Below are positions 15,562 to 29,600 of a DNA stretch of 64,000 bases, piece after piece; positions within the stretch are counted from its first letter, which is position 1, and each line of letters opens with the position of its first letter. The DNA comes from a virus. Below the pieces are notes generated by a model. It had not been told where the DNA came from, did not search any database, and was given only the letters and a program-made list of their open reading frames with translations. The DNA lies in the IMG/VR virus record IMGVR_UViG_3300035189_000033, positions 22,539 to 86,538 of that record; one strand, written 5' to 3'. Position numbers and translations under genes: made by a program.

Positions 15562-17697
15562 ATGGGCCTCGATCCGACCCTCGTGCACGGGTTCCAGCCG
15601 ACGCAGAATGTCGGGCCGAACCTCGGCGGCATGCTGCAAGACGCGAACTCGATGCTGCAAATCGGCGAGCAGAAGCGGGTGTTGCAGCAGCAGAACGCGC
15701 TGCGCGGCATCCTGGGGACGCCGGACGCGCTCGATGCGCAGGGCAATCCGACCGACGCCACGCTGAAGCGGGTTTCGGGCGTGGACCCCGCGATGGGCAT
15801 GCAGTTGCGCCAGAACATGCTGGTCTCGCAGCAGCGGCAGCTTCAGACCGAGTCGATGCAGAGCAAGGCCATGCAGGACAAGATGGAGCTGCTGGCCAAG
15901 ACGTATGAGCCGATTTGGGACGACTACAATGACGCGATCAAGCATGGCGCCACGCCCGAGGAGGCGAAGCGGGCGGCGCAGGAGGGGGTGACCGAGGGCA
16001 ACAAATTTCTGACGCAGCACGGGCTTCTGGCGCCGCATGAGGTCGCCAACCTGCCGACTCAATTTGACCCCATCCAGTTCGGGCATTTCATCAAAGGATC
16101 GCAGACTTACCGCGAGGATATGACGGCGCGGGCGGCTGCGGAGCAGAAGGCGAGAACCGAGCAACAGCGCGAGCGGCAGCTCGATATTGAGCAGCAGCGG
16201 GCGGATCAGGAAAAAAGCAAAGAACAGCCCACAATGGGGCCTGATCCAAATGACCCGAGCAAGCTGGTGCCGGGTGTCGTGCGGAGCAACGCCGGCAGCA
16301 ACGACCCGCCGGTCTTCATTCCTTATCCGACCGGCGTGCAGGCGCCGGCCGGCAAAACCGCCCCAGCAGGATCAGTTGCGGCGGAGCGGTCAACACGGTT
16401 CGAGGAAGAAAAGCGCAACCAGCAGGCCGCCGGGACCTATAAGAACGACAGCGGGGTCTACGACGTCGTCGATGCGAAGCTGAAGACGATCAAGGATAAC
16501 CACTTCCCGCCCGGCACCGCGAAAGTTCTCGTCCAGCGCGCGCTTGCCGGCGATTTTTCAGGCATGACCGGCTTTAGCCGCTCGCCCGGGCTTTTGGTGG
16601 AACTCGACACCGAGCTTGCCAAGCAGATGGCGGAGCACGATCCGCCGCTGACCGGCTTGGATCTGGCGCGAATGAGGGCCGGATTTGCCGCCTACACGCA
16701 GGGCGTCAAAGCGTTCGAGGCGGGCGGCAAGCTGGAACAGCCGGTGCGCAGCCTGTCGGTCGCGGTGGATCACCTGGACCTGCTGAAACATGCGGCGACG
16801 GCGGTTTCCCAGCATGACAGCGCGACGCTCAACAGACTCCAGAACGCGCTGAAGACAGAGTTTGGTTACACCGGGCCACCGACGTTGGACGCGATCAGGG
16901 GCACGGTTGCGGCCGAAATCGAGAAGGCCGTATCGGGCAGCGCTGGTGCTGTGTCAGACCGCGAAGACCTGAAGGCCAACCTCAACAAATCGCTGCCCCC
17001 TGCCGCGCTGATGAGTGTGATCGACGGCTACGAGGGGCTGATGAGCGGCCAGCTTGGCGGCTTCCGGAAGACCTATCAACGGCTGCAAGGGATCGAGCAA
17101 GGCAGCGGTGAGGATTTTGACAAGAAATTCCTCAGTGACCGGGCGACCGCGGTCCTGACCAGACGCGGACAGATGGGCGCCGCGGGCGGCACGAATGAGA
17201 AGCCCCCCGCTGCGACCGCGCCGGCGGCAAAGGCAGATCAAGCCGCGATTGCCGTTCCGACAACGCCGGCCGAACTTGCCGCACTGCCGCCAGGGACCAA
17301 ATACCGCAGACCGACCGATGCGCCTGGCGTGGTTCGGCATGCGGCGGCGGCGACTGCGACGCCGGAGGCGGCCAAGCCAGCCGCCGCGGCGCCCGCAGCA
17401 GCAGCGGCACCCGCAGCAGCGACGCCGGCAGCCGCGCCCCCGCCCGGAGCCTACACGGTGCCGAAATCTCGCGCGGACGATCCGGACGGCACCACTTACA
17501 ACAACGGCAAGCTGGTCAAACAGGGTGGCTTCATCGTGCCGGTGAAACCGGCCGAGGCCGCACGCAAGGATGCAACGCCGCCTGCGGGCGGTCGACCGCT
17601 GCCGAAGTCGCGGGCCAGCGATCCCGACGGCACGACCTATAACGACGGAAAGTGGGTCAAGCGGGGCGATTTTGTCGTTCCTGTAGGAGCACAATAA
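15562..17697 (+). CDS. DNA ejection protein (gp20-like position)
   Basis: Helical Q/A-rich protein; duplicated C-terminal PKSRAxDPDGTTYNxGKxVKxGxFxVPV module. Confidence 0.75.
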   Translation: MGLDPTLVHGFQPTQNVGPNLGGMLQDANSMLQIGEQKRVLQQQNALRGILGTPDALDAQGNPTDATLKRVSGVDPAMGMQLRQNMLVSQQRQLQTESMQSKAMQDKMELLAKTYEPIWDDYNDAIKHGATPEEAKRAAQEGVTEGNKFLTQHGLLAPHEVANLPTQFDPIQFGHFIKGSQTYREDMTARAAAEQKARTEQQRERQLDIEQQRADQEKSKEQPTMGPDPNDPSKLVPGVVRSNAGSNDPPVFIPYPTGVQAPAGKTAPAGSVAAERSTRFEEEKRNQQAAGTYKNDSGVYDVVDAKLKTIKDNHFPPGTAKVLVQRALAGDFSGMTGFSRSPGLLVELDTELAKQMAEHDPPLTGLDLARMRAGFAAYTQGVKAFEAGGKLEQPVRSLSVAVDHLDLLKHAATAVSQHDSATLNRLQNALKTEFGYTGPPTLDAIRGTVAAEIEKAVSGSAGAVSDREDLKANLNKSLPPAALMSVIDGYEGLMSGQLGGFRKTYQRLQGIEQGSGEDFDKKFLSDRATAVLTRRGQMGAAGGTNEKPPAATAPAAKADQAAIAVPTTPAELAALPPGTKYRRPTDAPGVVRHAAAATATPEAAKPAAAAPAAAAAPAAATPAAAPPPGAYTVPKSRADDPDGTTYNNGKLVKQGGFIVPVKPAEAARKDATPPAGGRPLPKSRASDPDGTTYNDGKWVKRGDFVVPVGAQ

Positions 17698-20600
17698 TGC
17701 CACTCGACGGTGCTGATGACGGCGCATGGCTGGTGCCGGATAAGCCGGTTGGCAAAGCACCGCGAGCGCCGGACTTCGACCTGATCCCCGACCCGCCGGC
17801 GAAACAGGCGGCAGCGGATGATTCGGGGGATTGGCTCGTGCCGGATCGGCCGCGAGCGGCCGTCGCGCAACCGGCGGCGCAGCCAGCCGCACTCGCACCG
17901 GCACAGCCCGCAGCGCGCCCTGCATCAGCACAGACAGCCCCGGTTCAGCAGATGCCGCCGCTCGATGAGTTGGGTATCGGCCAACTCGGACCGCAAACCG
18001 GCGCACCGCCAGGGCAGAAACCGGTCGAGGTGGGACAACCGGGCGTCAATATGCTCGCCGCGATCGCGCAGGGCGCCAAAGCGGGCTGGCAGGGCGGCGC
18101 GTTCCAGGAACAGCCGGGCCTGGTTGACGCTGAACTTCAAACCCTGAAAACGCCGGTCTATGGCTCCGGTCCGACGGCTATGCCGGGCTTCGCTGCTGTC
18201 CCCGCCGTGACTGGCCTAGCCGGGCACGTCATCAACCAAGCGCTCGGCGCACTCGGCGGTGGCTTCACGTCTGGCGTCGTGCAAGCTGGCGAAGAAGTCG
18301 GGCCGAAACTGGGCGGACCGCAACTCGCACGAGACTATCTCGGCTACCTACAGGCAATCGGCAATGAGATCGGCATGGGGGGCGTGTTCGCGCCCAAAAC
18401 GATAGCCGAAGCGGAATCAGGTGCGAACACGCGGATCTTCCGGGGTGGAAGCCCCGGGCCAGGCGATTCGCCTGGGCGGGTGCTCAATTGGGATGTGATC
18501 GAACAACGGCCGCCGGCGCCGCCAGCGCGTTCTGTGCCCGGCGTCAAACGGAGCGAAGTAGACATTCAGCTTGAGTCTGATGCGTTCCTGATCGCCCATC
18601 CTGAAACCGCGGCGATCTACGACAAATACCATGGCGAAGGTGCCGCACAGAAGGTGCTCGACGCCGCTGCCAAGAAGCCCGAGGGCGGCAAGCCGCAGGC
18701 GACGACGCCGACTGCCGCGAGCGCGGCCCCCGCGAAACCAGCCGAAGAACCGCCGAAACCCTCTGCGTCCGACGATACGGTTAAAACAGCCACCAAACCC
18801 ACCGGTCCAACGGCGCCCAAAATCCGCACGATCTCGCAAATCCAGAAGGAAGACGGCGTCGGCTACAACGAGGCGGCGCGCCGCCGGGATGCTGAAAAGC
18901 TGGTGGCACAGCTGGTCTCGTCCGCCGCCGCGCCGACCGCAGCAGATGCAGGCACCCCTGCGCCGGATGGTGCGCCTGCCGCTGGCGACACCGGAACTGT
19001 GACCACTAGCGAAACACGACCCACCAAACTTAAACCGGGGCAACGATTTCACGAGTACCCGGACTCCGCGCTTGTGGCTGATGGGCTGCGTGAAGGCGAC
19101 GAGATAACCACCAGCGCAGGAGATAAATTCACCGTACTTGGGGTCTTCGCCCATAACAGGAATCGGCCTGACTTGGGCAACAGGATCGACATCCGCTGGG
19201 ATAATGGAAAAGAAGTCTCCTTCAAACCACGCGACCTCGAATCCGTCCTCGTGCCGCACTATTATTACGACGCCAACACTGGCGAGCGAAAGCTGGGCGA
19301 GGGAGCGACGATCCAGCGGGCCAAGGCTGCGGCCGAAGACGCGGCTACTGGCGGCAAGGGCACGTCCGATGAACCGCCTGTGGCGACGGCCGCCGATTCC
19401 GCCACCACGGCACCGGCCCCGGCAGATGCAGGCACCGCACCGCCCGCTCCTAGACCCGTCAGCCAGATCCAGGCCGAGGACGGCGTTCCGCTCGGGACGG
19501 CGGTGCAAACCCATGAGGCGGAGAAGCTGGCAGCCGAACAGGCGCTCACCACAACCGAACAGCCCAAAGCCGATGAGCCCGACCTCGAAAACGCCCATGA
19601 GGGACCATGGGAAGCCGCCGGCACCAACGCCGAGGGCGAGACGGTCTACCGCAACCCCAAGGGCCGGCTGGCGACATTCGATGCCGGCGTGCCGTGGCTG
19701 GGTGCGGCGGACGGCTCGGACGACGACAACAAGCGGCTGAAGGTGGTCAAGCCCGTTGAGGCGGCGGCGGCACCAGAACCCCGCCCGGTCGAGCAGATCC
19801 AGGCCGAGGACGGTGTTGGCCTCGGTGCTGCGGTGCAGACGCACGAGGAGGAGAAGGAAGCGGCGAAGAAGGCTGAACAGGAGGCGGCAGGCGAAACCGA
19901 AAAGCCCGAGAAGAAGCCCGCGGCGAAGAAAGCCAAGCCCGCCGCGGCCGAACCGGAGGATGAGGCGCCCGCCGAACCGGCCGCCGAACCATCCGGCGAT
20001 CAAAAGACTCCGGGAAAATCCGGGATTAAAGCGAACGAGAAACCGCAACAAACGCAGCCCGCCCAGTCGCCCTCGGGCTCCTTAGTGATGGCGCCGATCG
20101 GGGACGACTATTTCCCGCCCGTCCAGTCGGGGCAGAAGTTGCGCACACAATCGGGCCGCGACATCACGGTCCCGACGTTCAGCAGCGGGTCAAACCGGGC
20201 GGACAATCTCGCCCGCCGCAAGCTCAACGCCTGGCTGGCGGACGAGACGCGCAAGGAAGTCGCCGCGAGCGGGGCTGACAGCTATCTGGCCGGCATTGTG
20301 GCCGGAATGAACCCCAAGAACATGTCGCAAACCGACCGCGACACCGCGAGCGATATCCTGTTCGGGGCGGATGGTCCGAAAGCCGCTCCCAAGGCGGAAC
20401 CGGCCAAGAAACCGGCGGCTGCACCCGAAGCCGCAGCGCCGGCGACGCCGGTCACGAAACCCTTCACGTCGCAAGACATCGGAACGAAGGTGCGGCCGAA
20501 GCCGGGCAGTGGCCTCGATCCGGTCAAGAACGCGGGCATTATCTCGCACGTCCAGACATCGCCGCAGGGGCCGAAAATTTCGGTCAACGGCGGCCCGCAC

Positions 20601-23600
20601 TTCCTGGGATCGGACTTCGAGCGCGTGCCGGAAGCGATCCCTGTGACACCCGAGGCGCTGCACGACCGTATCATCGCCCAGCTTCAGGCCGACACCAGGC
20701 TGCAAGCGGTTTTGTCGAACGCCGAGGAAAGCCCCGATGGCGCGCGCGAGACGGTTCGCAAGGCATACCGCGCCGCGCTGGGCCAGATGCTGGCCGACGC
20801 GGATATGCCAGACCTGCACGCTATCGCTGCCGCGTCGGATGCGTTGCGCGACAGGCCGATCGGCATGGATGACGTGCGCGAGATCACGGCGGCCCGCCCG
20901 GGAGCCGCACCCGAACCGGCTGCAGAAGCCACCGGCACGCCGACCACCGACGCGAAACCCGCCGCACCCGCGCCAGCCGCAACGCGCACGATCACACCCG
21001 AAGAGCCAACTTACGATCCCAAAGACGAAGATCAGCGGAACGCCCCGGTTGGGGAGTTTGGCTGGAGAGACCTCGGGGGAGGATACGATTATCGCTTTGG
21101 CGAAACGGGTGATGATCGTGTCCGGCGCCGATTTATCCAGGTCAGAATTCTCGACAACTACAACGACCCAACCGATTGGTTCACTTGGAACACGGTTCGC
21201 GCGGAATCGCTCGACATGACACTTCAGGCGCCCCTGGTGCACAGCTACGTGCGCAAGGGTCGGGACGGCGAGATGGAGCCGGATGAGGTCTGGCCGGAGC
21301 ACGGCCCGGAGATCGAGCACCGTTTACGCGAAGCGGCGAAGCAACAAGGTGACCAGCAAGGTCTACCCGCACCTGATTTGCAAACGCCGGGCGGAAGCGC
21401 CATATCGGAAACTCAGGAGTCCGCAGATGGCGATCGACCCGACAGTGCTGAAGTGGGTGAACCGACAGGTGGCGGACCTCGCGCATCGGGGGCTGGTGCC
21501 CGGAAGCCCAAGGGAAACCGACCTGCTGCAACACTGGCTCCAGAATCGGCCGAAGATGATGCACCGGCTGGACTCAGCGGGGATGGCGGAGAAGCTGGCG
21601 TTCGTCCTGGATCAGAAGCGGTGGGAGGCGCGCCAGCAGTACATAGCGGCGGGGATGCCGCCACCGGACGCGGAGGAACAGGCGATGAGGGAGTGGTGCC
21701 TGATGGAGCCGGAGGACGAACCCCAAACCCAGCCGTTACCCGCCCCAATTTCCACATTGACGACCCAAAGCGAATAATCGGCGGCACTGGACCTAAGCAG
21801 CGTTTCGCCCGCAACCGGGCCGCTTTAAAGGCGCTTGAAGACATCCAGGCAGAAGGCCGCGATCCGACCCAGGAAGAATTGGAGACCATGGCCGGGTTCA
21901 TCGGCTGGGGCTCGTTTGGCCAGGAGGTCTTCCAGGGCAGTTTCGAACGGCAACCCTACCGCGATGGATGGGAAGAAGAAGGCCGTTGGCTGCGCGAGCA
22001 CCTGGGCAAAGAGGCGTGGGACAGTGCCCGCGACTCCATCCGCAACGCCCATTACACCGACCCGCCCACCGTCGCCGCGATGTGGGACATGGTTCGCCAC
22101 ATGGGTTTCTGGGGCGGGCGGGTGCTCGAACCGTCCATGGGCGTCGGCAACTTCTTCGGCCTGATGCCGCGCGACCTGATGGGTCAAAGCGATCTGACCG
22201 GCATCGAGAAGGAAAAAACCACCGGCGAAATGGCTAAGCTGCTGTATCCGCACGCCGGTATCCACGTGCGGGGCTACGAGGAAAGCAAAACCGCAGATAA
22301 TTTCTACGATCTGGTTATCGGGAACTGGCCGTTCGCTGCGCAAAGCCCGCCCGACCGACGCTATGACAGGCTCTCGCCAAGCCTGCACAATTACTTCTTC
22401 CTCAAGGCGCTGGATCAGGTCCGCCCCGGCGGGCTCGTGGTCGGCATCACCAGCAACGGGACGATGGACAGCGCCGGCCGCGCCGCCCGGCTGGAAATGG
22501 CGAAGAAGGGCAAGCTGATTGCCGCGTTCCGCCTGCCGTCTGGCGCGTTCAAGGATTACGCCGGGACTAGCGTCGTCGCCGACATCATCATCCTGCAGAA
22601 GCGGGCGCAACCGCTGGCGAATGCCGTCGATGAGCCATGGATCGATGCCACGGAGATGAGCACCGGGCACGGCGACATCCGGGTGAACCGGTATTTCCAG
22701 GATCACCCCGAAAACGTGCTGGGCACCCTCGATTGGGGCCACGGCACCACCTCGGGGCGCCCGGGGATGATCGTGCATCGTCCGGACGACCTGGAGCAAC
22801 GGCTGCAAGCTCTGGCGGCAACGCTGCCAACAGACGCCTATCAGCCAGTGATCCGGGGCAAGGAACCGCGCTTTCTGGTCAACAACACGACCGACCGGCA
22901 CGGCAGCATCGTCATTGGCGACGACGGCCATCTCTACCAAGTCCAGGGTGAGCGGCTGACCCGGCTTGACGACCTGAAAAGCGGGATGACAACAGGGCCG
23001 GCCAAGGTGGTGAAGGCGCGCGAAGATCAGGTTCGCCGCATGGTCGCGATGCGCAAGGCGTATGGCGCGCTGATCGACGCCGAGCGGGACGGCAAGCCGG
23101 AAGCCGACACGCTGCGCAAGTCGCTGAAGGCGCAGTACGACCAGTTCCGCGCCGAGCACGGCCCGATCGGTAAATCCGATGGCTTGCGTGTGCTTGACCG
23201 GATGAAAGACCCTGGCCGTTCGGCGGTTGAATCGCTGGAACGGCCGGACGGGACGCCTTCACCCATTCTGACCGAGCCGACGGTGCGTTCGAGGCGGAGC
23301 CTGGAAAACCCCTCGATCGCCGACGCATTTGTCCTGGCGCGAAACGAGCAGGCAAATTTCGACCTCGACCGCGTCGCCGAACTGACCGCCAAGCCGCGCG
23401 CCGCGGTTGAGGATGTGTTGCTCGACCAGGGCGCCATCATGCGAACGCCGGGCGGCGGTTTTGAGGCGACCGACGATTATTTGTCAGGCAACGTCCGGCG
23501 CAAACTGCGTGAGGCCAAGGAAGCCCTGGCCGCTGGCGATGAGAAAATGCAGCCGTCGATCGATGCGCTGACCAAAGTTCTGCCGCCAGATACGCCGTAT

Positions 23601-26600
23601 TACAACATCGAGGCGAAGCTGGGCGCCACCTGGGTCGGCGATGACGCCTACCGGTCGTTTATCGGCGACCTGTTGAACCTGACACCCGATCAGCGCGCGG
23701 GCGTCGATGTCCGCTTCACCGGGAGCCGCTGGCGGGTGCGGTTCGGTGACCGTGCCATCAACGGCAAGGCCGAGGCCAGGACTGTCCACGGGCACGAAGA
23801 TTACCCGTTCAACCAGTTGATCATGGCGGCGATGGGCAACCGCTCCGTCAAAATCACGTACCGGGACGATGACAACGTCAAGCACACCGACGACAAGGCG
23901 ACCGAAGAGGTCAACGCCAAAGTCCAGGATCTGAAAGAGAAGTTCACCGACTGGGCGTGGTCGGACCCGGAACGCAAGGTGGCGTTCGAACAAGCCTTCA
24001 ACGAGACGATGAACGCCATCGCCAAGCCGCGCTTTGACGGCTCGTTCATGGATATGTCGGGGATGGCGCTGCGCCGCGGCAATGACCCGTTTTCCATGCG
24101 GCGGCATCAGCTTAACGCCATCTGGCGCGGCGTGGCGCTTGGGCGCGGACTGTTCGCCCATGAGGTCGGCACCGGCAAGAGCTACACCATGGCCGGGATC
24201 GCTGTTGAAGGCCGCCGCTATGGCAAATTTCGCAAGCCCGTGGTGTTCGCGCACGGCGCCAACAGCGCCGCCGTCGCCCAAGAGTTCCAGGACATGTATC
24301 CGGGCGGCAAGTTCTTCTACATCAGCACGCTAAAGCCCGACCAGATCGCCACCAGCCTGCGCCGCATCGCCAACGAGGACTGGGATGCGGTGATCATGCC
24401 GCACAGCCTGATCGACCGCATGGCGCTGACCAAGCCGACCCTGGTGGCATTGGCGGCGGAGCAAATTGCCGAACTGGAAAACGCGGCGATCGAGGCGGCG
24501 GCGGAAGATGACATTACGCTTACGCCCGAAGAAATTTACAGCCTGATCGAAGAGTCCAAAACGGACAAAAAGGCGATGGGCCGTCTGCGCAGCCCGACCG
24601 CGAAGGATGTTGTCCGGCAAATCCAGTCGCTTCTGAACAACATCGAGAAGCAGGCCAGCCGTGCCTCGAAAGAGGACGCCGTGCCGTTCGAGCAACTGGG
24701 CATCGACGCAATTCTTGTCGACGAAGCGCACGAGTTTAAAAAGCCGCCGTTCGCCACGGCGATGAAGATGCGCGGGCTGAACACCCAGTCCAGCGACCGC
24801 TCCATCGCGCTGGACTTCCTGACCAAATACGTCAAGGCCAACAATGCCGGGAAGGGCGTGTTCCTGTTCACCGGGACGCCGGTGACCAACACGTTGAACG
24901 AAATCTTCAACATGGCTCGCTACTTCATGGATGACCGGATGGCAGATGCCGGCATCAAGGAGTGGGACGCATGGTTTAACACTTTCGCCGACGCGACCAA
25001 CGACATCGAACTGACCAGCACCGGCGAGATTGAGCCGGTGAAACGGCTGGCCGCGTTCAACAACGTCGATGAACTGGTGCGCCAGATGTCGGAGTTTGTT
25101 GACGTCGTCCAGGCCAAGGACATGCCCGAGTTCAAGCCGCGACCGACGCCGTCGGGCAAGACCCTGACATCGCCCGACCTCACCGCGGAAGAGCTTGATT
25201 TCCTGATGAACGGCCGGACCCTCAAGCCCGAGGGCCGCCCCTACGTCAAGGTGATGACCGACGTCGGCGAGATGTCGCCCGCCCAGGTGGACATCCTCGA
25301 CGAACTGCGTGAACTGGCCCGAGAGTTCAAGACTGCTGACGGGAAGCAGAAAAAGGAGTGGATGCAGGAGGGTGACGAGCGGGTGCCGATCCGCATCGAA
25401 ACCAACTCCGCCAACACTGGTATCGACCCGAGGCTGTACAACCCGGACGCGCCGGACACCGAAGACAGCAAGATCAACCGCATTGTGCGCAACGTGCTGC
25501 GCCACTATGGCGAGCCGGACGCCGCGCAGGCGATCTTCCTCGATCGCGGCTTCAATCCTGTGAAGTCGTCCGAGGGGCGGGCGAGCCGTTTCGTGGTGGT
25601 CGATGAACTGATCGCCAAGCTGGTCGAGGGGGGCATCCCGCGCGAGCAAATCGCCGTCGTCGCAGGCGGGATGAAAGCGGAGAAGAAGAAAGAGATCGCC
25701 GACGGCATGAACTCGGGCAAGTACCGGATTGCCATCGGCCAAAGCGGCACGTTGGGCGTTGGCGTGAACATGCAGGAACGGCTGCGCGCCATCCACCACT
25801 TTGATGCGCCCTGGCGTCCGGGCGATCTGGAGCAGCGCAACGGCCGCATGAACCGCCAGGGCAACACCTGGAACATGGCCTACGAATACCGCTACGTGAC
25901 CGAAGGCATCGACGGCCGCCGCTGGCAGGTTCTTCAGGTTAAAGACAAGTTCATCAAGGCGTTCATCGCCGCGTTCAACGACACCAGCGGCAAGCGCATC
26001 GGCAATATTGAGGGCGATGCGGCGGATATGTCGGAAGATGAGGACTTCTCGAAGACCTTGTCGGCCGCTGCCGGCGATCCGAGGATTATGATCAGGGCCA
26101 AATACAAGGCCGATGTGGAGCGTTTGCAGCGCCGCGAGCGGTTGCACACCAGGGGTCAGGCCGAGGCGATACAGCTTGCCCGCAGTCGGCGGCCGATCGC
26201 CCAGCGTTTGCAAGAGCAGGCCGCAGCGCAAGGCCGTTACGCCGATCGCTGGGAAGCATCGGTTGCCCGTGCGGCGAAGGCTGCGGAGGCCGATGGAGAC
26301 GACCGCAAGTGGTATGAGATTGACGGCGACAAAGCCCAGGCGGCGGCCAAAATCGCTAACCTGGAAACATCGCTCGCGGGTTGGGACGATCAAATCGCCA
26401 AGGCGCGGAAGGCGCTGCAAGAGGCGAAGACGGCAAACAATCGGTTCGAACATATCGAACGGCGCCTTGACCGGCTGATTGGCGCCAAAAACCGGGCGCA
26501 GGCCGCTGTTGAGACCGTCAGGTCCACCGGGCGCTGGTTTGATACCGGCGCCGATCTTCAGGATACGCTTGACAAGGCGATCACTGAGGTCGCCAGGGGC

Positions 26601-29600
26601 GAGAAGCGGAAACTCGCGACCGTGGGCGGTTTTGATATCGTCGGTAACTGGAGCAGCCCGTTCAACTTCTTCGAGGCGCCGCGCATTGAGATCTACGACC
26701 CCGCAAGCGGGGAAGTGGTAGACTGGGTAACCGGATTGACGGTGCTGCGCATCGCCAATGAACTGAACCAGCGGCGCCAAAAACAACAATCCTGGGCGAC
26801 TGACGCCGCCGAGAAAATGGCGTCGATCCCCGCGCTGGAAGCCGCTGGCAAGCAGGATTTCCCGCAGCAGGAAAAGCTGACCAAGTTGCGCCAGCAGCTT
26901 GCCAAGCTGGAAGACGACCTACAGGCCAATCCAAACCCGCCGCCGTCCTGGCTGCGCAACGGCGCGCCGATCGACACCGATATCTACGTGGATGGAGAGC
27001 CCCGCACGGTGCGTGGGCATCGGGTGGTGGACGACTATTTCCTGGTCACCGACGAGGGCGAAGTGCCCTACCTGGCGGCGATGGACGCCAACGGGCTGCG
27101 GATGTTCACGGTTCACGAGCCGCCGCAGGTCGTGTCGCGGGAAACGCCAGACTGGGTGAAGCCGCATCTCGAAGCGACCAAGGGCGTCTCCGAGGGTGAC
27201 CCGCATGTCTGGCACGGCGAACTGGTCTGGCACAACCGCGACCTGGCGCTGATAAGGGGCACCACGAACCTGTGGGGGCCGGACGAAACGGCGTTCCTGG
27301 GGTTCAAGAAGGGCGTTCCTGCCGAGCCGGGCCGCAACCTCATCGGCATGATGTCGCCGAAGGGTTTCAAGCCGCAGGAGTGGGAGCGGCTGGGTGAAGC
27401 GCGCGACGACTACGTTGCCCGCGAGGCGAACAAGGCGGCGCTGGCGGCCGCGGCACAGCCGACGCCCGCGAGCGGGTTCCAGCCGACGCCGGGCCTGGAC
27501 TGGACGGTGGATGAGACTGAGCGTTGGGTGCGCGGGCTGCCGCGGGGCGGGCTGGCCGAGGGATCTGGGGGCATCTCCGTGCCGCTCTACAGCGCGGTGC
27601 AGCGGGCGGCCGACGCGCTGAAGCAGGCCAAGGGCACCGGCCAGCAGATGCTGGCGCAGATCGTCAAGACGCCCGGGGTGAAGCCGGAAGAGATCGAGTG
27701 GATGGGGCTCGATGATTGGCTGAAGTCGCAGCCCAGCGTGACCAAGCAGCAGATCCAGGATTTCGTCGCGGCGAACCGGCTGGAGGTGCGGGAAGTCACC
27801 AAAGGCGACTATCGGGCCCGGCTTGAACCGGCGCACACAGCGGTCAGTGAAGCTGCCGACCGGCGACAGATCGCGGCCGAACGGCTGGAGCGCGGCGTGG
27901 ATCAGAACGGCTACACGGTCGAGATCGACGGCGAGCGCTTGTATCATGACGAGATCATGCGCGGGCTTGCTGATGGCGCAATCAAGCCGGGCGATTTGCC
28001 CGTGGCGCACGGGTTACGTTCCCGTGCCGCGCTTTTTGTCGAGGCTGTCGCCGACGAAGCGCAGGCCGAGGCCAAGCTGAAGCAGGCGCAAGAGCGGGTC
28101 AGAGCCAACCCAGACCCAACCAAGTTCGGAGGCTGGCTGGCGCCGTTCCAGCCCACGGACCAATACCGCGAGATCGTATTCACTTTGCCGGCGCCAGAAC
28201 CGTCGCCTGCTGGCGACATTGAGAGGCTACAGAACGGTAAGTTTCGGGTTACTTACGGCGGATCGGGTGACGTGTTTGCTACGCGGGCTGAAGCCGAAGC
28301 GGAAACCCGGCGACTGGGCGAAATCTTCAACAAAACAAATGATTCACGGGTTTTTCGTGGTGGGCATTGGAGCGAACGGAACGTCGTGGCGCATGTCCGC
28401 TTCGATGTAGTCGAGGCGCCGGACGGCGCGCGCGTGCTGATGGTCCACGAGGTGCAAAGCGATTGGCATCAGGCGGGTCGAAAGAAAGGCTACCAGACTG
28501 GCGAAAAGCCCAAGGGCGCGGGCAATTTCATGGACTGGACCGCGCGCCAGGGGATCAGCGCGGACGACGCGGGCCGGATCTGGGAATACCGAGAAAAGGG
28601 CGACCCCAACACGCCTGACAACGTGATCTACGCGCGCTGGCGGCAAGAGAGCGACGCGGCGATCGCCGCCATCGATCGCTGGAACCATGCGGTGCCGGAT
28701 GCGCCATACAAGACCACGTGGCCTACGCTGGTGATGCGGCGGACGATCAAATACGCCGTGGACAACGGCTTCGACCGGATCGCGTGGTCGCCGGGTGCGG
28801 TGCATGCGGATCGCTACGACCTGTCCAAGCAGATCAGCCGCGTCGAATATGACCAAAGCCCCAACAACCCCGAGGGGGGCTCATTCAAGGCGTTCGATAA
28901 GAGCGGCAGAGCGGTTATCAACCGCTACGCCAAGACGGCCGAACTGCCAGACATGATCGGCAAGGCGGCGGCTGACAAACTGCTGGCGCAAAAGCCCGAA
29001 GGCGACGGCATCACACGGGGCAACAGTCTGAAGCGAACGCTTCGCGGCCTCGATCTGAAAGTCGGCGGCGAGGGGATGACCGGCTTCTACGACGACATTC
29101 TGCCCAAGACGGTGCAGAAGATCGTCGGCAAATACGGCGCCAGGGTGGGCAAGAGCGAGATACCGACGGGCGGCGGCAATGCTGCGGCGCGTGCCGAGTA
29201 TGCCCAGGAGATTGAGGACATCGAGGCCGCTATCGTCCACAACGAAGCGGCCGGCGCCGAAGAGCACTACCTCGACCAACTGCGGGACCAGTTGGCAGAG
29301 GTTGAAGCCCAGATGATGCAGGACACAATGGATCGTTCCGCGCAGCCCGGCGCGTCCGCCGTCCACTCCTTCGACATCACGCCGGCGCTGCGTGACGCGG
29401 TGCGGACTGAGGGGATGGCGCTGTTCGAGCGCAAGCCGGGTGGTGCGGATAGGCCAGCCAGCCCGGCGCCGGCGACGAAACCAACCTGGGCGACGCCGCT
29501 GGCCAGCGATATCAACGGCACTGTGGCATGGCAGAGCAAGGGGCTGGCGCTAATCCAAGGGCACTCGATCAGCGGCAAACGCATCTACGTGCCGGCCAAG

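Follow-up and report, generated by a model that had tools for sequence, protein, structure and literature searches.

Can a short open reading frame (ORF) that lies wholly inside a much larger one, on the same strand but in a different frame, be a gene in its own right? The question is raised by a 64,000-nucleotide (nt) stretch of phage DNA (positions 22,539 to 86,538 of IMG/VR record IMGVR_UViG_3300035189_000033; here, the window), in which an ORF encoding 116 amino acids (aa), which we call X, is embedded in a giant ORF for a DarB-like methyltransferase-helicase. The record is 86.5 kb long, is judged to be complete, and has a G+C content of 64.5%; DNA nearly identical to it is found in many peat and permafrost metagenomes. 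Comparisons among related phages lead us to conclude that X very probably is a genuine gene, coding for a protein in the +1 frame of the giant gene that surrounds it.

Composition and position of X

A preliminary description of this DNA, made from its letters alone, had drawn attention to an ATG codon preceded at a spacing of 7 nt by the Shine-Dalgarno (SD) sequence AGGAG and followed by a 116-aa reading frame. The start, the SD sequence, and the residues quoted from the product are all as described. It had also held that the giant frame reads the same DNA as a linker of the G/D/A/P/R type, which is what the translation contains (Table 1), and had predicted that the G+C content at third codon positions (GC3) would switch to the +1 frame over X. 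The switch is there. From about 21360 to 21780, position 3 of the X codons has a GC value of 0.83 to 0.90, compared to about 0.70 for position 1 and about 0.42 for position 2. Position 2 of X is position 3 of the giant frame, where GC is 0.75 to 0.90 outside this interval. The coding-type GC pattern over X is normal, but it stands in the +1 frame; the switch coincides exactly with X, and the giant-frame pattern is found on both flanks. Two of the outcomes that the preliminary description had named as telling against a gene, a lack of homologs and GC3 that stays in the long frame, were not what we observed: GC3 switches, and X has many homologs.

The giant ORF that contains X begins with a variable N-terminal region, which is followed by a disordered linker, an LPD36-adenine methyltransferase, an SNF2/SF2 helicase, and C-terminal domains. 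Its Pfam matches are to Eco57I-like methyltransferase, ResIII, SNF2, and Helicase_C, and its methyltransferase region matches phrog_10089 ("DarB-like antirestriction") with an E value of 1e-160. The fusion of an LPD36-adenine methyltransferase to an SF2/SNF2 helicase that marks DarB-like polyvalent proteins is present. Because of the Pfam domains and the phrog_10089 match, the product belongs to the giant polyvalent virion-type proteins built around the LPD36-methyltransferase-helicase dyad, a dyad that is described in PMC5512222.

A profile of X found 19 viral contigs, and BLAST found the Pseudomonas phages USP_25 and USP_18. X homologs are present in 25 phage loci or records, and in 24 of these they occupy the same +1 position, just before the LPD36-methyltransferase module; the exception is phage PBC5, where X shares the frame of the upstream part. 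In each of the 19 non-redundant loci, the most divergent of which have 25 to 30% aa identity, X stands in the +1 frame and the giant ORF is open across it; the cultured phages USP_25, PEp14, Itty13, and Mwe-JY07 show the same arrangement. Across loci the X gene is 99 to 132 codons long and starts with ATG (or GTG). The placement of X directly upstream of the methyltransferase module, inside a linker of the giant protein, was correctly seen in the preliminary description, and it is general: in 22 loci the distance from the end of X to the start of LPD36 is no more than about 25 codons. Over X, the giant frame of these 22 loci consists of 75 to 87% G, A, P, R, D, S, T, and E and 5 to 11% hydrophobic residues, and this stretch is read here as a disordered linker from its composition. 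In the window the X stop codon falls within the first codons of the LPD36-methyltransferase module, the start of which carries the motif NFHI.NP..IVGG ... GWGSFGQELFQG, conserved in the 22 loci.

The window's closest relative, L002, places a boundary at this point. The two sequences become 90% identical at the nucleotide level abruptly at 21365, 62 nt ahead of the X start codon, and remain so beyond 27762; upstream of 21365 they share only short, patchy, and rearranged matches. Position 21365 is a sharp mosaic junction: the first 3.7 kb of the giant ORF, encoding its N-terminal part, belongs to a different, rearranged module. Reading through X in another frame links the variable N-terminal modules to a cassette of X, LPD36, methyltransferase, and helicase.

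Start signals and selection in the two frames

X has translation start signals of its own. A four-base SD core is present at positions −17 to −4 in 17 of the 19 loci, compared to 18% of positions in the same genes (P ~ 1e-11), and a five-base core is present in 14 of the 19 loci against a background of 5% (P ~ 1e-14), values that are somewhat generous in that the start in L016 (clearly) and possibly that in L017 were chosen partly by their SD sequences. In many loci (e.g., L007 and L010) the X frame is closed by stop codons 1 to 12 codons upstream of the ATG.

The openness of the giant frame was evaluated by swapping X codons for synonymous ones drawn from local codon usage and counting the stops that arose in the giant frame. 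Depending on the locus, the giant frame was stop-free in 0 to 17% of the recoding trials, which gives a joint probability of 1e-36, or 1e-17 when only X's own synonymous codons were permuted; the loci are related, so these joint probabilities overstate independence and are upper bounds on significance. In addition, synonymous sites are saturated at the distances that separate the loci. In loci with 50 to 57% GC, the chance of an open giant frame after synonymous recoding was ≤0.006. A T at position 3 of an X codon is the potential first base of a giant-frame stop (TAA, TAG, or TGA), and T makes up 3 to 10% of these positions compared to 8 to 26% elsewhere.

These results bear on the view that the giant ORF is an annotation illusion, i.e., that there are three genes (one for an N-terminal protein, X, and one for the methyltransferase-helicase) and that the long frame is open by chance in a GC-rich genome. 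Long chance ORFs do occur in GC-rich DNA, the block shared with L002 starts just before X, as expected of a former operon of X and the methyltransferase-helicase, and PBC5 is split at this point. However, chance does not account well for a long frame that is open in 19 of 19 non-redundant loci, genomes of 50 to 57% GC included, or for a depletion of T that is specific to the stop-creating position. In addition, the upstream gene would have no stop codon of its own, and so would be read through anyway, and there is no conserved start codon near the beginning of LPD36. We consider three separate genes to be very improbable.

The direction of selection is seen in comparisons of the two frames. 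Of 171 pairs of loci, 170 show higher conservation in the X frame than in the giant frame (mean identities of 43% and 31%, respectively), and the least variable nucleotide position is position 2 of X, which is position 3 of the giant frame. In five close pairs that are independent of one another, we counted 138 substitutions with a synonymous effect in X and a nonsynonymous one in the giant frame, versus 55 of the reverse type; the neutral expectation, from all single changes, is 44:56. Both reading frames are under selection, the giant frame being held open and X being subject to purifying selection. From the openness test and the direction of substitution, it follows that X is constrained as a protein, whereas the only constraint on the giant frame is that it must not stop. 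Composition, layout, an own start, an open giant frame, and the direction of selection are five independent lines that place the X signal, as judged by these comparisons, far beyond chance.

Purifying selection also has to be set against the proposal that X is not expressed, the +1 signal being either a compositional artifact or the fossil of a domain that was once in frame and that compensating frameshifts have displaced. The domain is indeed in frame elsewhere (in PBC5 and in Psychrobacter, described below), but a fossil would decay, and X remains conserved over at least 312 clusters (50% identity), is under purifying selection in its own frame, has kept its start signals, and has a gene length that stays constant at 99 to 132 codons. 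This proposal seems to us the least probable of those considered.

The preliminary description had further credited X with a complete promoter, and this part was not borne out. The hexamers TTGCAA and CATATC, spaced by 17 nt, are present, but CATATC lacks the invariant final T of a −10 element, and for this reason a sigma-70 scan does not call the site. L002 shares the 62 nt upstream of X only as one portion of a 6.4-kb block of 90% identity, and this block also explains why the hexamers are conserved there. The sigma-70 scan gave no evidence of a separate promoter for X, and translation of X from the giant gene's transcript would be the simpler reading. The scan returned two overlapping sites at 21749 to 21778, where 0.1 was expected. 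The sigma-70-like sequence there, TTTCCA-N18-AATAAT (9 of 12 matches), spans the X stop and the LPD36 start, and it is likely to be dictated by the codons of the conserved NFHIDDPKRII motif.

In a peat metatranscriptome library, a 172-nt contig is identical to 21413 to 21584; it is compatible with expression and gives a weak hint of it, but it is not proof of transcription. Three further RNA-library contigs (X18 to X20) come from an L002-like relative, and their match to the window begins at 21365. Because these contigs are long (up to 19.6 kb), they are uninformative on a separate X transcript.

If X is an embedded gene, ribosomes would start at its own SD sequence and ATG inside the giant mRNA and make a five-helix protein of ~12 kDa. 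For ribosomes on the giant ORF, these 350 nt would encode a disordered linker, rich in G, A, P, R, and D and without stops, that joins the variable N-terminal part to the LPD36-methyltransferase-helicase core. Selection would then act on the amino acid sequence of X and, in the giant frame, only on the absence of stops. A T-to-C change at 21428 would separate the two products, since it converts the ATG of X to ACG and is silent in the giant frame (GAT to GAC, both Asp).

Several points weigh against this conclusion. Besides the generous SD P values and the relatedness of the loci, the case for translation of X comes, in this DNA, from sequence comparison. The fold predicted for X has no convincing structural match, the best E value from a Foldseek search of the PDB being 1.6. 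The domain that precedes X in many relatives, ND, is undetectable in the window's own giant protein, so that the idea of ND as a partner of X cannot hold literally here, and an AlphaFold2 model of a natural ND-X fusion has a predicted template modeling score (pTM) of 0.45, with no confident packing of the two domains.

TABLE 1 Features of the X locus in the window and corresponding ORFs in three cultured phages
Feature	Position	Strand	Description
Giant ORF	17652-30746	+	4364 aa; from ORF list and translation
X leader	21365-21426	+	5' edge of block conserved with L002; contains the Shine-Dalgarno sequence
Hexamers TTGCAA-N17-CATATC	21378-21383 / 21401-21406	+	Promoter-like, present in sequence; not a credible sigma-70 match
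Shine-Dalgarno AGGAG	21415-21419	+	7 nt before ATG 21427
Giant-frame linker over X	21426-21743	+	Low complexity, stop-free; 83% G/A/P/R/D/S/T/E, 10% hydrophobic
Nested gene X (probable)	21427-21777	+	116 aa, ATG 21427, TAA 21775-21777; +1 frame relative to giant ORF
LPD36-methyltransferase module start	21744-23399	+	NFHIDDPKRIIGG...GWGSFGQEVFQG; kept in 22 loci; PHROG and Pfam matches
Unannotated +1 ORF, Bcep22	L028 3293-3613		Between ND and LPD36 in DarB-like coding sequence; GC3 switch
Unannotated +1 ORF, Gervaise	L029 3257-3577		Between ND and LPD36 in DarB-like coding sequence; GC3 switch
Unannotated +1 ORF, vB_PalP_Y7	L033 4055-4348		Between ND and LPD36 in DarB-like coding sequence; GC3 switch

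The X family and its in-frame forms

A word-indexed search gathered 201 proteins of the X family. An exhaustive profile search gave 312 clusters at 50% identity, 165 of them at E values of ≤1e-10, and nearly all members are 100 to 135 aa long. One is annotated in RefSeq, the hypothetical protein WP_338212884.1 of Halopseudomonas aestusnigri. Matches to the X protein of the window (P0001) were absent from PHROG and from the plasmid collection searched, and no X-like ORF was found near the methyltransferase-helicase genes of Listeria pLIS36 or of a Roseomonas plasmid.

There is a second subfamily, the PBC5 type, whose members are about 101 aa long and all begin MNLQNW; it aligns to the X family with an hhalign probability of 95% and an E value of 2e-8. 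An NCBIfam scan of this subfamily returned nothing meaningful. Erwinia phage PEp14, Pseudomonas phage Itty13, and Microcystis phage Mwe-JY07 carry PBC5-type X as a nested +1 ORF. The X hidden Markov models missed Bcep22, Ralstonia phage Gervaise, and Pseudoalteromonas phage Y7, but this was a failure of sensitivity and not an absence of X. In each of the three, the 330-nt gap between ND and LPD36 holds a +1 ORF of 98 to 107 codons with the same GC switch (Table 1); in the Bcep22 gap, GC is 0.92 to 0.94 at giant position 1 and 0.40 at position 3. By composition and position, these ORFs appear to form a third, more divergent subfamily.

The giant coding sequence alone is annotated over the locus in the GenBank records of USP_25, Bcep22, Gervaise, PEp14, Mwe-JY07, and Y7; the Itty13 locus is annotated differently from those of the other cultured phages. 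Because X is missing from these six records, proteomic and genetic work on DarB-like antirestriction proteins is blind to what would be a conserved component.

X is also found outside the nested arrangement, together with ND, a helical domain found in the giant frame of many DarB-like genes. In 9 of the 19 loci the giant frame encodes ND directly ahead of X, and in many loci ND ends just 30 to 90 nt before X. In Sinorhizobium phage PBC5, ND and X form the in-frame C terminus of a 2,185-aa protein, and the downstream frame (3,210 codons) is open across X. PBC5-type X matches the C terminus of phrog_938, which ends as the PBC5 protein does, and further in-frame ND-X forms are P0245 and P0252. 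Three Psychrobacter genomes have a 222-aa gene in AT-rich DNA with no overlapping ORF, the N-terminal half of which is ND and the C-terminal half X. This ND+X gene (L022 7980 to 8666 in Psychrobacter sp. R86515; also L023 and L024) is chromosomal, and its neighbor on the opposite strand encodes a 948-aa restriction-modification enzyme of the MmeI type; the ND+X gene may be what is left of a giant gene from a phage, retained in a defense neighborhood.

A single frame change between ND and X distinguishes the nested state from that of PBC5. PBC5 either has a giant gene that is naturally split where ND meets X or has a one-base error at that junction. In its RefSeq record (L025, NC_003324), gp21 starts at 24523 and 24524 to 26154 is unannotated; the frame is open from 26581, overlapping the X-encoding end of gp22. 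Because X exists elsewhere as a normal non-overlapping domain, it is probably an older protein domain and not a product of overprinting.

The in-frame forms raise a further alternative, that X has no initiation of its own and that a programmed +1 frameshift from the giant frame yields a truncated N-terminal part joined to X, made beside the full-length protein. Such a product would be the arrangement that PBC5 encodes directly, with X as the in-frame C terminus of the 2,185-aa protein and likewise in phrog_938, and the short distance of 30 to 90 nt between ND and X in many loci would suit it. Nonetheless, we think it improbable. It has to pass the X-frame stops that lie just upstream of the ATG in many loci, and it leaves the strong SD and ATG enrichment without a role. 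Even homologs of the PBC5 type are called as 101-aa proteins starting MNLQNW, and PBC5 itself has GAAGGAAG-N8-ATG at that point. No conserved slippery site was noticed on reading the junctions, for which no formal search was made.

Fold, relation to TnpV, and possible role of X

An AlphaFold2 model of X built from 70 sequences has five helices over residues 5 to 90, with a predicted local distance difference test (pLDDT) score of about 86 to 92, and an acidic disordered tail; over the whole model pLDDT is 79 and pTM is 0.63. Further fold searches gave a best E value of 0.023 in BFVD, to a chunk of a polyvalent protein, and a best Z score of 5.6 in VIA wide, which is within the noise for helical proteins.

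The preliminary description had called X TnpV-like. For X itself this did not stand: Pfam TnpV (PF14198) has no match at E ≤ 1 to P0001, to any of 70 family members, or to any of 149 cluster representatives, and none came up at E ≤ 10 when the whole phage was searched in six frames. What stood was a resemblance in the two sister subfamilies, and it is weak. Against a gathering threshold of 27 bits, the best score anywhere was 20 bits (PBC5; E = 6e-4). Sub-threshold matches were obtained with 10 of 23 PBC5-type proteins and with the Bcep22 nested ORF (E = 0.045), for which TnpV is the top sub-threshold Pfam match, and no other Pfam family recurs among the sub-threshold matches of the sister subfamilies. 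A language-model search with an X homolog added a weak lead, one listed cluster with TnpV in 11% of its members. The link is plausibly a remote relationship and not membership, and X would be at best a very distant relative of TnpV. The two are similar in size and in their all-helical pattern, but TnpV belongs to the context of Tn4451-type serine-recombinase transposons, whereas X lies in a phage virion-type gene. The TnpV of Tn4451 has been postulated to act in excision, from its homology with lambda Xis (PMC3158075). The resemblance carries little functional information for X.

Two observations suggest that X acts with the giant protein, namely that X always stands at the head of the LPD36-methyltransferase-helicase cassette and that covalent fusions of ND to X recur (a Rosetta-stone argument). 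We tentatively suggest that X may be a non-covalent partner of the giant protein, helping it to fold or to be packaged into the virion (capsid loading) or modulating its activity. The preliminary description had proposed that X may regulate the methyltransferase-helicase. X and the giant protein would come from one late transcript, and in many relatives X would make contact with ND, the helical domain located immediately before it. A broader proposal, which we hold to be unlikely, is that DarB-like methyltransferase-helicase virion proteins require X, or its Bcep22- or PBC5-type counterpart, as a subunit that is translated separately and serves in folding, capsid loading, or enzyme control, and that TnpV proteins are distant relatives with the same partner role. 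If true, this would give both families their first function and would explain why the giant gene tolerates a 115-codon "junk" linker.

The nearest known arrangement is Rz1 within Rz of phage lambda, of which an embedded class occurs in Bcep22-like phages (PMC9144972). As with X, a small same-strand +1 gene lies wholly inside a larger gene and has its own ribosome-binding site, and both products come from one late transcript, as would also be the case for X. However, the gene that contains X is a 13-kb gene for a virion-type enzyme, and neither X nor the giant protein is related to the spanins. The overlapped part of the giant protein is a linker predicted to be disordered and not a functional domain, and X also exists elsewhere as a normal non-overlapping domain.

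In hepatitis B virus, the polymerase spacer overlaps preS/S, so that the enzyme ORF reads a tolerant disordered spacer where the other frame encodes a constrained protein. The likeness to X is an analogy only; the type of virus, the proteins, and the mechanism of expression all differ.

The DarB of phage P1 and the DarB-like proteins of the Bcep22 type share the LPD36-adenine methyltransferase-SNF2 helicase core with the giant protein, which is a strong PHROG member. The first 50 kb of P1, which contains darB, has no X match (hmmsearch, E ≤ 10). The P1 Dar helpers Ulx and DdrA were considered as relatives of X and rejected, the hhalign probability being 0.1% for both. P1 does have another nested gene in a Dar-system gene, the annotated iddB, which lies inside ddrB on the opposite strand (L034 26577 to 26975). 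Full-text searches of the literature found no description of a nested gene in DarB-like genes, and keyword searches of the polyvalent-protein survey PMC5512222 and of the JC1/Bcep22 paper PMC9144972 gave no mention of one.

Few long overlaps between genes on the same strand have solid comparative support in double-stranded DNA phages and bacteria, and here both frames are under selection across hundreds of sequences. The locus also offers an evolutionary model, in which large polyvalent proteins can fuse modules across an existing gene by reading that gene in another frame as a linker.

Two other regions of the giant ORF have unusual composition. At 17772 to 18041, the GC value at giant codon position 1 also reaches 0.9; this is an Ala/Pro-rich repeat region (PAAQPAALAPAQPAARPA...), and the pattern is a compositional effect rather than a further switch of frame. 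Near the C terminus there is a second +1-frame ORF, at 30388 to 30597, encoding 69 aa (MSGRLIDPPDEF...). GC is 0.88 to 0.90 at its own position 3 and 0.32 to 0.34 at giant position 3, and, judged by composition in the window, it is probably a second nested gene.

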